Virus record (IMG/VR): IMGVR_UViG_2778261693_000004 | Coordinates: 1 to 16,397 of that record | DNA length: 16,397 nt | Direction: 5' to 3' (one strand) | Source: a virus | Taxonomy: Duplodnaviria > Heunggongvirae > Uroviricota > Caudoviricetes | Part shown: piece after piece, positions 1 to 14,523 of the stretch | Layout: every line of letters starts with the position of its first letter | Numbering within the stretch: position 1 is the first letter of the stretch | Notes under the pieces: generated by a model | The model's input: the letters and a program-made list of their open reading frames with translations, nothing else | Database searches by the model: none | Told to the model about the DNA's origin: nothing | Position numbers and translations under genes: made by a program

Positions 1-1
1 G

Positions 2-166
2 GCATCCAACGCCATTCATGGCCATATCAATGATTTTCTGGTGCGTACCGGGTTGAGAAGCGGTGTAAGTGAACTGCAGTTGCCATGTTTTACGGCAGTG
101 AGAGCAGAGATAGCGCTGATGTCCGGCGGTGCTTTTGCCGTTACGCACCACCCCGTCAGTAGCTGA
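2..166 (+). CDS. 3' end of a plus-strand CDS running off the left edge; by P1 synteny possibly the C-terminus of the type III restriction subunit Res
   Basis: Frame 2 is open from the window edge to TGA at 164-166 (…[31 protein letters not shown]). It converges on the mat-position gene as res does in P1. I do not recognise the residues themselves. Confidence 0.3.
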
Positions 167-501
167 ACAGGAGGGACAGCTGATAGAAACAGAAGCCACT
201 GGAGCACCTCAAAAACACCATCATACACTAAATCAGTAAGTTGGCAGCATCACCAGCCTCATTTTGATGTCATTATTAGCAATTTAAAAAAGTTATGTCC
301 GAATATCATCGCTGAAGGCGTCGAAAACATTGATTGTCATAAGTTATCAAAAGGGATAGGGCTATGGGGCACTCAGGGATATTTTTTCCCATCAATTCCG
401 CTGACGGAGATTGAGTCCATAGATAGTAAGTGGCTATCAGATTTATGAGATGCAGAGAGTTAGGATATTGATATGAACATCTAAGCACCTCATTACTGTG
501 C

Positions 502-3693: not shown

Positions 3694-3764
3694 CTATTTG
3701 ACCTGATAAGGTATTGAACTGTATGGATTTACAGGTAAATTGATCATGTTCAATAACCCTTAAG

Positions 3765-5351: not shown

Positions 5352-5354
5352 ATT

Positions 5355-5376
5355 ATGCCCGGCATCAACCGGGCAT
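5355..5376. terminator. Hairpin between convergent c1 and antirepressor genes, possible bidirectional terminator
   Basis: ATGCCCGG-catcaa-CCGGGCAT, 8-bp stem, with A/T-rich flanks. Confidence 0.4.
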
Positions 5377-5383
5377 TCTTCCA

Positions 5384-6529
5384 TTATTCAGCCGCCACCG
5401 GTTTTAACAAGCCAGCATCGAGCAGTTTACGCGTCAACCACTGTTGTCCTTTCCCCGTTAATTGGGGCGTCAGCCGTATCTGGTAGCCATCTTCATCATC
5501 CAGCACCACTTCTTTCACTGTGAAATATCCGGCGTTTATGTACTGCTGGAACGGCACATTTTTACGCCCGCCGGACGCTATCAGAATGCCGTTCTCCCGT
5601 AACCAGGCAAACAGCGCGTTTTGCTTCAGCCCAACAACCTTTGCAAAATTACCAATCAGGATCCCCTTAGCCACTGATACACGGTCGGCAAAATCGACCT
5701 TGGGGGCTGCGGCCACCAGTTGTTGATTTAGCTGGTGGGCCTTCTGTTCCAGTAGCTGCTTTTGTTCAGCCAGCTCGGCAGCCAGGCGCAAGGCTTCAGG
5801 TAGTGTTTGGGGGATTGCGACCGGTTGCTGTTCTTTTTGCCGGAAGTAGCTGTCTTCCAGTTTTTCAAAGAATGCCCATGCTTCATCTGTGTTTACGATC
5901 TTAGACATGCGTGCCGCTCCGCGTTCGGCCCAAAGAATTACCTGGCTTGTATATTTGCTAACCAGGTGACTAGTAGTCACCAGCCTTTTAAATTCCTTTA
6001 ATTTTTAACCAGTTAAGAGATAGTAATGCTTACCTTCTTCAAAGCGATCGGAGTTGCGAGACAAATTTTTACGAATATTAGCTTCATCGGTTCCATACCC
6101 CTTAGCAAGAGTTTCGGTCGTTACTACACGCACTCCCAGCCATTCCAGAACGGGAATTTCATCAGACTGATTCTGAACAACCACCAGCTCTGATTCCTGA
6201 ACTGAAGTTGCATGAATTTTTTCTGATTTAACGTTAGTTGCTTTCATTCTGTGTGCCTCCTTGCGTGCTTCGGCTGCGACGGTTGCGTAATTCAGATGAC
6301 CCTGTTCGAGCAGGTATTCACGGATATCGGTCACAGCGATAGCCTTTAAGCGCAGATAAACATCGCGCTTATCGACATCCAGATGCGGGTATTCCTTTTC
6401 AAGAATTGCTGCGAGTTCTTTCGCTGATAGAAGAGATTTAGTGCGGATCATGTAATCCGCAATCTCGTACGATGTTATTCGTGAGTGATTTATTTCCATG
6501 AAGTGGCGTCCCTGCCAGTTAAGTAACAT
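5384..6529 (-). pseudogene. Antirepressor-like gene (ORF6N/Rha-type N-terminal domain plus KilA-C/ANT C-terminal domain) split by an in-frame TAA at 6005-6007
   Basis: ORFs 6005-6529 and 5384-5980 are in the same frame. The upstream ORF stops mid-domain (…SDRFEEGKHYYLLTG*) and the domain continues after the stop (KLKEFKRLVTTSHLV…TDEAWAFFEKLEDSYF). The downstream part carries a KilA-C-like motif (GNFAKVVGLKQNALFAWLRENGIL…PFQQYINAGYF) and begins only at a GTG. Confidence 0.6.
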
Positions 6530-6599
6530 CCTGTCACCTACTGATTAGCCCATGTCAACTAATCAACGTCGAATATAATACCATCGATTAAAGAAATAG

Positions 6600-6616
6600 C
6601 AATACATTAGAGCAAT
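6600..6616 (-). promoter_or_regulatory. C1 operator-like site upstream of the antirepressor-like gene
   Basis: caatacATTAGAGCAAT, 14/17 to the reverse-complement consensus, 71 bp upstream of the ATG at 6529. Confidence 0.55.
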
Positions 6617-6617
6617 T

Positions 6618-8939: not shown

Positions 8940-8958
8940 AGCGTTTTACCTCAAAAAT

Positions 8959-8974
8959 ACTGTTTATCTATACA
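8959..8974. promoter_or_regulatory. LexA box (CTGT-N8-ACAG) in the humD promoter
   Basis: taCTGTttatctatACAGca, about 20 bp upstream of the humD Shine-Dalgarno and ATG, overlapping a plausible TTGCAC/TAATGT promoter on the minus strand. Confidence 0.65.
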
Positions 8975-9113
8975 GCATACATTAAAGAAGCACCTTTGGT
9001 GCAAACGCGTTATGTACATCAACCACCGCTGATGATTTTTGTGCGCTTTGCTACTATTCATCACCGCGGGATCAGCGTAACCTCGTTGCCAATCAGTTAA
9101 TAAGGAATTAGCT

Positions 9114-9698
9114 ATGCCTAATCGCATTCCTCTCGATCCTGTATTGCCCAAAAATTTTGACTGCACTCCTAACGAGAAACGCTCTAAAGCTCAGCTGGAC
9201 GCCTAGTGGGACCATCCATATGGGGTTACACAACCTGACGGGAAAATTGTAGTTTATTGTCTGAATGGTGGGGCGTGGGACCGTCCATCCATGCTTTGTT
9301 TGGCAGATAACTATGATGAAGCCTGTGAACTTGCCGAAAGACAGCAGGCAAGCTGGGTAAAAACACGGTCTGAACCGACATTCATGTTTTCAAAAGAACC
9401 GCCATTTATACTGGCGAGGATGCCGCAGCGACCGGATCATCAACAAGAAATTGTTGCTGAATTTTCCTCAAGGGATGAGATGAATCTCTTCTCATTAAAG
9501 CAGGAAGAAAGGGATCGCGTCGAAGTGTCTCCAACTCTCGACCACAACCGGATGAACCTGGCCCAGCTCGCCTGGTACAGCAAAGAATTAGAGATGTCTA
9601 TTGCCCGGCTTGAAAACGAAAAAGCCGCTATCCAAGTCCAGCACGAAGTAGTTCTGAACCGGATTAGAGAAATGCAAAACGATAACAGGGGATTTTGA
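9114..9698 (+). CDS. Hypothetical protein; reading frame from a well-positioned ATG is interrupted by an in-frame TAG at 9204-9206 (uninterrupted ORF starts at 9291)
   Basis: AAGGAA Shine-Dalgarno 8 nt before the ATG at 9114. Frame is open for 30 codons, then TAG, then continuously to 9698. The ATGs at 9291 and 9314 have no Shine-Dalgarno. The stop abuts the next gene's ATG. Confidence 0.45.
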
Positions 9699-10055
9699 AT
9701 GGCTAAAATCGAGTACCATCGCGATCGCGGTAATTACCTGGAAATATACGATCATGAATCTCTTAACGATATCAACGATGCGTTATATGAATACTGTGAA
9801 AAAACGAGCATCACAGATGCACCTGATGCATTTGTCGAGCTGCCGGTATATCTCCGCGACATCTATGCAATACGAACACCGCCCGTATCGGTGATTCACA
9901 TTGGCTATGTCCGCCTGTCCATCGAAGAAGATGAAGATCGTTATATCGTGCGCCACTATACATTGGACAGAAAAGAACTTCCTAATGAATGGAACATGAG
10001 TAATTTCTACAACGGTGAATATGGCTTAAAATCCGCTAATAATTTACGGTCATAA
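9699..10055 (+). CDS. Hypothetical 118-aa protein, translationally coupled to the upstream gene
   Basis: ATG at 9699 directly follows TGA at 9696-9698. AGGGGA Shine-Dalgarno. Sequence not recognised. Confidence 0.55.
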   Translation: MAKIEYHRDRGNYLEIYDHESLNDINDALYEYCEKTSITDAPDAFVELPVYLRDIYAIRTPPVSVIHIGYVRLSIEEDEDRYIVRHYTLDRKELPNEWNMSNFYNGEYGLKSANNLRS

Positions 10056-10900
10056 TCTATACAGGCATGTATAACAACAACGAGCCTATTAGCTGTCAAC
10101 AACGTTATTTCCTCAAATAAGAAAAAGCAGAAAACAAATTGTTTAAGGTCACAAATTGTGGCCTTGATGGAGGAGGGAGGCTTATTGGCTATGGCTAAAA
10201 ATCAAATTAGACACTTCATGTTGCTGTAGCTCATCAAGATCCGAGGCCACAAAACCTTTTCCGAAAAACTTCACAAGTAACTCACTAGCCGCATCATTGT
10301 CACCTATTACACGAAAGTCATACGGCAACGTCGCAAGTTGACGATGTAATCCTGCTGAGAAAGTCGAATCTAACAGCGCCCAGAATTCCCACCGCAGGAT
10401 AATACTCGCCTCTTAATACTGTATATATGTTGTTACGATATGTTTTTCTGTCTCTAAAAAAAGATGTTTGAAGGGGATAAAAATATACAATTCCAACAAA
10501 CGTTATTTTTAACAATTTTTTTCTTTGCGTTGACTTTCCCGGACACCTTGTCTGACCTAAGGTGCGCGAAAGCCACTTTTTCCTTCCTGAGTTATCCACA
10601 AAGTTATGCACTTGCAAGAGGGCCATTTTCTACATATTGTGGTGGCTAACAGATGAAATGAATGTAGATTAATTGAAGATAAGGAGAAAATTTGAGATGC
10701 AATCATGACGTTAATAGATAGGGTCTGCATTACAGACCCCACCCGCATCAAGGAATTAGCCGTTCCCTGATGTTTTTCCGAAAACATGTGCCGTAAGCTC
10801 ACGTTAACGACTTTCATTCACCGAATCCAACTATATAGGGGTTGGGTTTCTACGTCAACGTGAGCAAGTGCACCTTTACATTTGACAAGGAACCACCTGA

Positions 10901-12354: not shown

Positions 12355-12866
12355 GCCGCGTTTCCTTCTTTCTTATTAACAATTACACCGTCATATATTT
12401 CATTAAGGTGCCCTCTCAACTCCATGCGCCTTAATGCAGATAACATGTAATCGCATTCAACCTGCTTATTTCCAGTAAATGGCTTATCGTCAGGATTACC
12501 CCAACAGCAATTACCCTTGGGCCACCCATGTACTTTCCGTACTCTTCCGTTAACAACGTGAAGTAATCCCCAGCCAGGTGGTAAATCCTCAATTGAAATA
12601 ATTCCCGGCTCACTAATAAAGAATCGCCAGTCGCCCATTCCAAGAGACGGATTTTTACGAAAACGCTTTTTTCTATCTGCCAACAAGTCAGCACGAGAAC
12701 ACTTCGCCTCTATCAGGCATGATGCTGAATTTCTGAATCCCATAGCATCTGGCTGTTCTCCGGTACTGGTTACAGCTATAAAGCGGTCATGAAAACAAAC
12801 CTTGAACCCGTTGCGCTTAAGGAACTTGTACGCAATCTGACAGAGTTCGCGGTGTGTTAACGCCAT
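12351..12866 (-). CDS. Putative PD-(D/E)xK-fold nuclease (MmcB-like)
   Basis: 171 aa with a D…E-x-K signature (…GEQPDAMGFRNSASCLIEAKCSRADLLAD…). ATG overlaps the stop of the upstream PP-loop ORF. Confidence 0.55.
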   Translation of the reverse strand: MALTHRELCQIAYKFLKRNGFKVCFHDRFIAVTSTGEQPDAMGFRNSASCLIEAKCSRADLLADRKKRFRKNPSLGMGDWRFFISEPGIISIEDLPPGWGLLHVVNGRVRKVHGWPKGNCCWGNPDDKPFTGNKQVECDYMLSALRRMELRGHLNEIYDGVIVNKKEGNAA

Positions 12867-12867
12867 A

Positions 12868-13234
12868 TCACTCTCCTTTGATGCGAATGCCAGCGTCAGA
12901 CATCATATGCAGATACTCAACTGCATCCTGAACCCATTGACCGCCAATCCCGTAATAGCGATGCGTAATGATGTCGATAGTTACTAACGGGTCTTGTTCG
13001 ATTAACTTCCGCAGAAACTCTTCCAGGTCACCAGTGCAGTGCTTGATGACAGGAGTTTTCCCAGGATGGCGAACAACAAGAAACTGATTTCCGACTTCAC
13101 GGACTTCGTTGCTTTCCAGTTCTGCTATCCATAAAAATGAAATGGACGCTAACGCCAGCTTTTCGCTGTGCTTCCATCAGATGAACGAGATAAGCCGATG
13201 TTCGTCCACCTGAAAAGCTGACGACTTGATGCAT
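12868..13234 (-). pseudogene. PP-loop (SGGxxS) ATP-pyrophosphatase-like gene, apparently frameshifted
   Basis: ATG at 13232-13234 gives MHQVVSFSGGRTSAYLVHLMEAQRKAGVSVHFIFMDSRTGKQRSP*. A second frame overlapping it by about 80 nt continues to 12868 (…NQFLVVRHPGKTPVIKHCTGDLEEFLRKLIEQDPLVTIDII…). The switch lies near a T5 run / GGAAAG around 13100-13135. Confidence 0.45.
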
Positions 13235-13243
13235 ACTCACGGT

Positions 13244-13822
13244 TTATTCCTGAATGCGCTTAAACTCGATTACCCATACCAACGGGTTAGATAGCCAGTT
13301 ATCCTGCCCGTAAATACTGCGCCAGATATCACCAAAACCAACGCGATAAACAGCTTCAGATGGCGTAATCTTGTACGTCGCCGGAGTTGCGCCTTCTGCT
13401 TTAGCATCTTCCTCGCTCATGTCATGCAGCCGTTCCACACGCACGTCGGTAATTTCCAAAAGAATGCGCGATGCCCAGCGCGGCATGTGAATTGATGGCG
13501 TCCACTTTTCTGATACTGGTTTATTACAAACCTCGACCGGAACCCGGTGCGTTTGTTCTGTCCAGGAGTTACGCACGCTTGCGCGATAAACCAGCGTTGC
13601 GACGTCCGTCGCTTTGCCATGTACCCGGTAGGTTTCGCGAACCCAAATACGATCGCCCGGTTGACCATATGGACAATGCTTGGCAAGCAACTCTGCGGCC
13701 ACTGCCCGTCCATAGAATTTTTCTTCAACAATCCTGCGAGTCTGTGTTTTATTCCCGCCAAGAATTGCCCGGACCATCTCATCGTTAAAAATCATGCCGC
13801 GCTCTTTCACTTCGCCTTTCAT
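13244..13822 (-). CDS. ASCH-domain-like protein
   Basis: 192 aa. N-terminal MIFNDEMVRAILGGNKTQTRR fits the ASCH G-x-K-x-x-T-x-R signature. GGGGG Shine-Dalgarno. Confidence 0.6.
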   Translation of the reverse strand: MKGEVKERGMIFNDEMVRAILGGNKTQTRRIVEEKFYGRAVAAELLAKHCPYGQPGDRIWVRETYRVHGKATDVATLVYRASVRNSWTEQTHRVPVEVCNKPVSEKWTPSIHMPRWASRILLEITDVRVERLHDMSEEDAKAEGATPATYKITPSEAVYRVGFGDIWRSIYGQDNWLSNPLVWVIEFKRIQE

Positions 13823-13831
13823 GCATCCCCC

Positions 13832-13918
13832 TTACCCATGTGCGACGATGCCGCCAAAAGTGATAGAGAACAGCCAGAAATAGATCGCGGCCATAATGAT
13901 TTTGAATGCCGTGTTCAT
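13832..13918 (-). CDS. Small hydrophobic peptide (28 aa), first ORF of the operon
   Basis: MNTAFKIIMAAIYFWLFSITFGGIVAHG with AGGAG 9 nt upstream. Its stop lies 9 nt before the ASCH gene's ATG. Confidence 0.3.
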   Translation of the reverse strand: MNTAFKIIMAAIYFWLFSITFGGIVAHG

Positions 13919-13945
13919 ATTTTCAGCTCCTGTGATTGATTGGAT

Positions 13946-13977
13946 ACATGCCGCGCCTTGCGGCATGTTTTTATTTT
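13946..13977 (+). terminator. Plus-strand rho-independent terminator in the leader of a minus-strand operon
   Basis: ACATGCCGC-gcctt-GCGGCATGT (9-bp GC-rich stem) followed by TTTTTATTTT. No plus-strand gene upstream. Confidence 0.45.
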
Positions 13978-13991
13978 CACTTTCTCTGTTT

Positions 13992-14008
13992 TAAAAATCA
14001 TTATTTAT
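13992..14008 (-). promoter_or_regulatory. C1 operator in front of the ASCH/PP-loop/nuclease operon
   Basis: ttATTTATTAGAGCAAT, 15/17 to the reverse-complement consensus. Confidence 0.7.
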
Positions 14009-14016
14009 TAGAGCAA

Positions 14017-14523
14017 TTATTGTTGATGGAGAAGCGCGTTTTCATACTCCCTGACCATTAACGTAAGCACGCCGTGCCTCCTGAAAACACGCGCCACTTC
14101 AATCTTATCTTCCAGCGCGAACGCAATTTTGCTTAGACCAATTTTCTTAAGGAGATCAATCTTTGCTGGACCGTCATTTCTGTCATCGGTGGCGGGACGC
14201 ATAGATAGCAAAGGCTCTGCCCCATTTGTTACGTGCTTACGCAACCAGGCTCGTGTTTTATCCCTGGCTATCTCACAGCGCCCGGTTACAAACCAGAGCG
14301 TGTAAATGCTGGACAACTGGCGCACCATATCAATAACTGGAGTGATGGAAGCATCAGTGTCACAGGCAAGGTTAAACTCGTTCCAGTGCTCTGTTAATGC
14401 ACCGTTGCCAGGCGGTGGAAGTAAATGCAGCCTGTCTTCCGTTGCCTCCGATATCGTTCCATCAATATCTACTATGACAATGTACGGACGTTCCTGGTGT
14501 GCGTGTTTATTGAAAATACTCAA
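14017..14523 (-). CDS. HAD-superfamily phosphatase (polynucleotide 3'-phosphatase-like DxDGT motif)
   Basis: 168 aa with motif I VIVDIDGTIS. TTG start with GAGGAGG Shine-Dalgarno 4 nt upstream. Confidence 0.7.
   Translation of the reverse strand: MSIFNKHAHQERPYIVIVDIDGTISEATEDRLHLLPPPGNGALTEHWNEFNLACDTDASITPVIDMVRQLSSIYTLWFVTGRCEIARDKTRAWLRKHVTNGAEPLLSMRPATDDRNDGPAKIDLLKKIGLSKIAFALEDKIEVARVFRRHGVLTLMVREYENALLHQQ

Follow-up and report, generated by a model that had tools for sequence, protein, structure and literature searches.

The first gene of the cassette at 9114-10055 is very probably a natural loss-of-function allele of lxr, W31am, in an lxr-upf93.6 pair of the P1/P7 type, and it has most likely arisen by ordinary pseudogenisation and not by recoding. 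The window, i.e. the whole stretch of DNA that was analysed (16,397 nucleotides), is to judge from its sequence a P1/P7-like phage-plasmid almost identical to pMRE162 of Escherichia coli, since it differs from this 76.8-kb plasmid of strain MRE162 by 5 SNPs and one 1.6-kb indel. The window carries a pseudogene allele of a P1/P7 gene that is non-essential and had been annotated before; features of this kind are already known, and the cassette matters little as a lead for recoding or novelty. The elements discussed below are the following.

8958-8977, no strand assigned: LexA box (TACTGTTTATCTATACAGCA), a match to CTGT-N8-ACAG, annotated as a LexA site in the P1 and P7 records
9102-9106, plus strand: Shine-Dalgarno sequence AAGGA of lxr, 7 nt 5' of the ATG at 9114, with an anti-Shine-Dalgarno duplex of -6.2 kcal/mol
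9114-9206, plus strand: 5' remnant of lxr/upf94.2, 30 codons (MPNRIPLDPVLPKNFDCTPNEKRSKAQLDA) and the premature TAG, from translation
9204-9206, plus strand: premature amber codon TAG, Trp31 TGG changed to TAG by G-to-A at 9205, from alignment with P7, P1 and MH422554
9207-9698, plus strand: remaining lxr frame, codons 32-194 and TGA (9696-9698), now 3' of the stop, from translation
9291-9293, plus strand: in-frame ATG at codon 60, GTG in the other TAG-lineage copies examined, start of the RefSeq 135-aa CDS
9699-10055, plus strand: upf93.6 homologue of 118 aa, ATG at 9699-9701, TAA at 10053-10055, with its own Shine-Dalgarno sequence AGGGGA

The layout given in the original prediction was confirmed on the sequence: a frame with a good Shine-Dalgarno sequence and an ATG at 9114 is interrupted by the TAG at 9204-9206 and is open again to 9698, over 164 codons up to the TGA at 9696-9698. 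Anti-Shine-Dalgarno pairing reaches -6.2 kcal/mol at 9114 and -6.5 kcal/mol at 9699, which places both starts in about the top 5% of window positions. The first in-frame ATG past the TAG, at 9291, pairs only weakly (-3.9 kcal/mol), and the statement that the internal ATGs lack ribosome-binding sites holds as well. The TGA at 9696-9698 directly abuts the ATG at 9699, so the second gene is stop-start coupled as described. Relative to humD-phd-doc, which runs from 8939 down to 7876, the cassette is on the other strand, again as described. Neither protein had been recognised at that stage; both turn out to be annotated P1/P7 genes, lxr/upf94.2 and upf93.6.

Sequence comparison indicates that gene 1 is homologous to P7 Upf94.2 and to P1 Lxr, annotated as "LexA regulated function", and gene 2 to P7 Upf93.6. 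The cassette region shows 98.7% DNA identity to phage P7 and to Salmonella phage SJ46, and about 95% identity to phage P1 across its first half. In P7 the same two genes, encoding Upf94.2 (AAQ07574.1, 194 aa; gene of 585 nt) and Upf93.6 (AAQ07573.1), occupy the same place, and as in the window they diverge from humD and the LexA box is present. Three changes alone separate the Lxr frame of the window from P7 Upf94.2, namely W31*, V60M and K186E, of which V60M and K186E fall after codon 31; the two Upf93.6 proteins differ by one residue (M48L). Unlike the window, P7 has TGG at codon 31, GTG at codon 60 and an IS903 about 260 bp downstream. P1 Lxr (AAQ14072.1, 190 aa) is the orthologue, with about 93% protein identity to P7 Upf94.2 and with the same start, Shine-Dalgarno sequence and LexA box as the window. 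The P1 gene is intact; its 3' end diverges from about window position 9648, and its downstream neighbour is hot, on the opposite strand, where the window has upf93.6. The P7 and P1 proteins both match PHROG 6164 (E = 3.5e-135 and 5.9e-130, respectively), and Upf93.6 matches phrog_5797 over residues 1-118 (E = 3.8e-77); both PHROGs are families of unknown function. Homology and synteny, with divergence from humD-phd-doc and a common intergenic region holding the LexA box, thus identify lxr, and what this copy lacks is an uninterrupted frame of about 190-194 codons. Upf93.6 is identified by full-length homology and by its position directly after lxr, and its relatives are confined to enterobacterial P1-like elements.

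It was proposed earlier to ask in homologues whether the 30 N-terminal codons are conserved and the TAG is replaced by a sense codon, and both are the case. These codons are identical in P7 and P1, with N3A as the single change in MH422554, and the sense codon TGG (Trp31) stands in place of TAG in P1 Lxr, P7 Upf94.2 and most relatives. The long open frame past the TAG is therefore not due to chance, because it is the rest of the homologous intact gene. The opposite case, homologues that start at the equivalent of 9291 with an unconserved frame upstream, was not encountered: RefSeq CDSs starting there occur only in copies with the same TAG, and in these the upstream frame is fully conserved. 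The TAG reads as a single G-to-A nonsense mutation, W31am, a one-step change because p28Eco12, P7, P1 and MH422554 all have TGG. Among the intact alleles examined, that of p28Eco12 is the nearest; across the CDS, just two positions set it apart from the window, 9205 (TGG/TAG) and 9291.

W31am is a natural allele, neither an error nor a laboratory artefact. A 37-mer carrying the TAG was found in 24 of 5426 complete E. coli genomes, every copy being on a plasmid, in isolates from human, poultry, pig, mink, deer, fish, crayfish, soil and wastewater; the TGG version is present in at least 169 complete E. coli genomes. In a collection of 15 billion proteins, 310 and 375 contigs have gene calls for the two 135-aa remnant proteins, and 534 have one for the 30-aa peptide. 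An error of sequencing or assembly would account for a single-base difference from intact alleles, as would an amber mutant made in the laboratory, but both are barely credible for a base shared by 24 independent complete genomes and hundreds of contigs (NCBI, ENA, Logan), and a conditional-lethal amber screen would presumably not have recovered a mutation in lxr, which is non-essential. Origin of the allele as a laboratory amber mutant, or by chemical mutagenesis of this plasmid, was considered separately and rejected, as the 5 SNPs relative to pMRE162 are of mixed types.

The amber codon itself is thus present and supported by homologues, as originally proposed, but it is an inactivating mutation and not a signal that calls for a suppressor. 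In a sister sub-lineage, to which p20170403CC-1, Salmonella pT2-4-4-ndm and others belong, the same TAG is accompanied by V38I, E131K and a TGA at codon 55; these extra changes are all G-to-A and none is synonymous. Since an amber suppressor is unable to read this TGA, read-through is not being maintained, and the frame past the stop has not been kept readable in the stop-bearing lineage. Full-length Lxr could still be made in the window if the amber were read through, by a suppressor tRNA of the host or plasmid or in a programmed manner, and the frame is indeed perfectly kept on either side of the TAG. This is very improbable and largely refuted: besides the TGA of the sister sub-lineage, the stop is not conserved among homologues (TAG in 24 genomes against TGG in P1, P7 and at least 169 genomes), no tRNA gene was found within the window, and the allele occurs in many unrelated natural isolates. 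As a side observation, the five derived lxr substitutions in the TAG lineage, at 9205, 9225, 9278, 9291 and 9504 (W31*, V38I, W55*, V60M and E131K), are all G-to-A on the coding strand and none is synonymous, a noticeable strand bias, although in counts too small for a test. Those at 9225, 9278, 9291 and 9504 were scored relative to the sister copies L007/L008 and to pMRE162.

The TAG removes the core of Lxr. Residues 1-125 are 50-65% identical to stand-alone proteins of about 133 aa in Proteobacteria, found on plasmids of Salmonella, Klebsiella, Pseudomonas, Xanthomonas, Burkholderia, Bradyrhizobium and Mesorhizobium. Among 20 representatives of the family Trp31 never varies, and among 53 its conservation is at least 90%; most of the invariant positions of the family precede residue 60, among them the WWDHP stretch and C49-L50-N51-G52-G53, D56 and R57 (CLNGG..DR). 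In the AlphaFold2 model of Lxr (mean pLDDT 88.6), residues 25-31 form a helix and residues 36-39, 45-49 and 59-64 form strands of an alpha/beta domain, after which comes a long C-terminal helix spanning 149-192. On this model, a product starting at residue 60 would be without helix 25-31 and two of the strands. Half of the conserved domain would be missing from it.

A profile search of 1.84 billion representatives retrieved 475 clusters (at 50% identity) for the family of the Lxr N-domain. The stand-alone members, named "DNA-binding protein" (e.g. P0138 of Pseudomonas/Xanthomonas, P0117 of Klebsiella and P0160 of Bradyrhizobium), are without the C-terminal coiled coil of Lxr and, unlike lxr, without LexA boxes upstream (loci L010-L017 and L027 were checked). 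Their genetic context varies: a small ORF-lxr-like-resolvase operon on Pseudomonas plasmids, a place beside a HEPN/Toprim gene in a Klebsiella phage-plasmid, one between repABC and traI-trb in Bradyrhizobium and one near a Y-family polymerase gene in Salmonella. No partner gene common to these neighbourhoods of distant homologues was found. Scans of Lxr, the remnant and Upf93.6 with Pfam, NCBIfam and PADLOC gave nothing significant, a sequence-profile search of the PDB found no relative, and a BFVD fold search gave nothing at E <= 0.001. The longer family members contain no significant known fused domain, and no Pfam or NCBIfam model was found behind the NCBI name "DNA-binding protein". The structure model of Upf93.6 is moderately confident (pLDDT 67.7) and had no meaningful fold match. 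Several distant members (P0197, P0204, P0208, P0213 and P0226) have a conserved N-terminal extension of about 60 residues (PTATLLARLKREAK...H..ALE..A...GY.SWHEL); it is present in many distant members of the N-domain family and bears a weak likeness, below threshold, to the start of Pfam Glyoxalase_8. The family comprises 475 clusters and has no Pfam model, no close solved fold and no assigned function, and natural lxr knock-outs are ready material for asking what it does.

The 135-aa "hypothetical proteins" WP_001354543.1 and WP_223656859.1 correspond exactly to the open reading frame 9291-9698, but with a GTG start where the window has ATG. WP_001354543.1 is the PGAP CDS annotated in pEC21Z048-103K, pMRE162 and E2 p1, and a K131 variant of the remnant is annotated in p20170403CC-1 and pT2-4-4-ndm. 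Both accessions are gene-caller products of the nonsense allele and not an independent family. The "hypothetical protein" and the 30-aa peptide are two pieces of one nonsense-mutated lxr, which should be flagged as a pseudogene.

Could the TAG lineage nevertheless make a functional truncated Lxr from the GTG or ATG at 9291, comprising residues 60-194 (half of the N-domain and the C-terminal coiled coil), the change from GTG to ATG in the window being then a compensatory improvement of that start? We consider this quite improbable. It would fit the remnant frame that stays open in hundreds of contigs, the 135-aa CDS annotated by PGAP, and the fact that the A at 9291, which creates the ATG, is the only difference between the window and nine other TAG-lineage copies over about 1 kb (9000-10100, approximately), all nine reading GTG. 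But such a protein would be deprived of the most conserved part of its family, including W31/W32, C49-L50-N51-G52-G53, D56 and R57, and would begin inside the predicted beta-strand 59-64. The conserved start and ribosome-binding site expected of an internal-start isoform were not found at 9291, where the Shine-Dalgarno pairing is weak (-3.9 against -6.2 and -6.5 kcal/mol at the two true starts). The ATG lies 85 nt past the stop, a distance that is far for re-initiation. In addition, the remnant in relatives has gained E131K and, in P0094, an internal 7-aa deletion. Residue 60 is variable across the family (V/M/F/A/L/S/H/W), Met60 occurs in the full-length members P0070 and P0096, and the same ATG is found at the equivalent of 9291 in 4 PLSDB plasmids whose gene is annotated over the site as a DNA-binding protein. 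The ATG of the window thus looks like an ordinary V60M polymorphism that has landed in a pseudogene remnant, and a selected improvement of a restart codon has little support. Recombination as a necessary source of this ATG was also considered and rejected, since there are no differences in the flanking sequence; conversion over a very short tract is possible.

Ribosomes that initiate at 9114 run into a stop after 30 codons, and the mutation takes away the invariant Trp and all that follows it. If lxr is a loss-of-function allele, as we favour, the frame 9207-9698 is most likely untranslated or weakly translated; it would be a decaying pseudogene remnant, and the 135-aa CDS from codon 60 a fallback of gene callers and not a conserved product. 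For upf93.6, the stop-start coupling would be lost and translation would still be possible from its own Shine-Dalgarno sequence. With about 490 nt of untranslated mRNA ahead of it, expression of this gene is probably reduced and not abolished, and Rho polarity may play a part. The allele has spread on successful plasmid lineages, and it would persist because lxr is dispensable. Indeed, lxr was non-essential in a genome-wide CRISPRi screen of P1 (PMC10695390), and hot-lxr-humD is counted by reviews among the parts of P1-like plasmids that vary (PMC9603915, PMC6906374).

The gene is often lost. The protein collection contains independent lxr disruptions of several kinds: N-terminal peptides of 41, 42 and 49 aa that result from frameshifts, stops at codons 32 and 40, an internal deletion lying between the repeats WWDHP and AWDRP, and C-terminally truncated forms of 153 and 158 aa. 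One point speaks against the pseudogene reading, namely that the 135-codon remnant is intact in nearly all TAG-lineage copies seen, so that some residual function is possible; this lineage shows only 0-4 substitutions, too few for a dN/dS test in so young a lineage. W31am is carried by about 12% of lxr-bearing complete E. coli genomes. Repeated silencing is what would be seen if loss of lxr had been selected, intact Lxr being costly; in a variant of this proposal the remnant from 9291 is functional and the change from GTG to ATG adaptive. We regard selected loss as unlikely. If it were true, expression of intact Lxr would be costly, and Lxr would represent P1 in a plasmid and phage-plasmid family that is widespread, strongly conserved and uncharacterised.

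The LexA box lies in the 174-bp divergent intergenic region between humD and lxr, 19 nt from the start of humD and 137 nt from that of lxr, and the P1 record annotates an intergenic LexA site as common to both genes. For lxr, no sigma-70 promoter came out of a simple scan of 8978-9113. Regulation of lxr by LexA is implied by the gene name, and the box abuts humD. At window position 8976 we observed a minor variation: the box ends CAGCA in the window and in the other E-type TAG copies, and CAGTA, which we take to be the LexA consensus, in the W55* sub-lineage and in the nearest intact alleles (p28Eco12, pPEC403_2). A second perfect CTGT-N8-ACAG motif is located at 3719-3734, between cra/cre and the coi-c1 region, and fits the LexA site reported to overlap the coi promoter of P1 (PMC4713147).

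A further feature was found inside lxr.

9356-9387, plus strand: protospacer in lxr codons 81-92, a 32/32 match to an E. coli type I-E spacer, with CTG at the PAM position 9353-9355

Complete E. coli genomes match 9355-9387 exactly at 1018 places on their chromosomes; among 11 chromosomal matches sampled, all lie at query positions 356-388 and 10 fall under a 'CRISPR' feature. The matched spacer is the last (trailer-end) one of the cas2-iap type I-E array, matched together with the final G of the repeat (array read in NZ_CP024821.1). According to PMC6568314, AAG and ATG are the consensus PAMs; CTG was tested there for priming. All P7-type copies have the 32/32 protospacer with CTG, and not a consensus sequence, at the PAM position, while P1 has the consensus ATG (codon 80 being AGA for Arg versus AGC for Ser) but 4 mismatches in the protospacer. 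The CTG of the P7-type copies and the mismatches of P1 could be escape signatures on both sides. Among known phages, P1, RCS47 and SJ46 are reported to be those that E. coli spacers target most often (PMC10910852).

Elsewhere in the window, about 3.7 kb are missing relative to the intact relative pEC21Z048-103K (window 5352-6617, with the junction at about 6332-6341). The loss takes in pacA, pacB, the icd-like gene, ash and the 3' part of lpa, whose first 66 or so codons now run, across a 10-nt overlap, into the interior of a KilAC antirepressor gene. The same deletion structure is present in pMRE162, where no CDS is listed at this place. With this structure, the element is probably a defective prophage-plasmid, unable to package DNA or to activate late genes. 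The 1.6-kb segment that distinguishes the window from pMRE162 spans 12860-14451 and is missing from the latter. In relatives, IS elements have inserted repeatedly 200-260 bp downstream of upf93.6 (window 10248-10330; L001 4420; L004 10258-11586): the region is occupied by IS903 in P7 and by ISVsa5 (IS10-like) in pEC21Z048-103K and is empty in the window; the ISVsa5 insertion shows a 9-bp overlap (10248-10256) resembling a target duplication. Finally, a query with the whole window matches at least 5000 records of the plasmid collection, which would agree with an IS1 origin of its first bases: window positions 1-250, approximately, look like the terminal part of a reversed IS1 copy.
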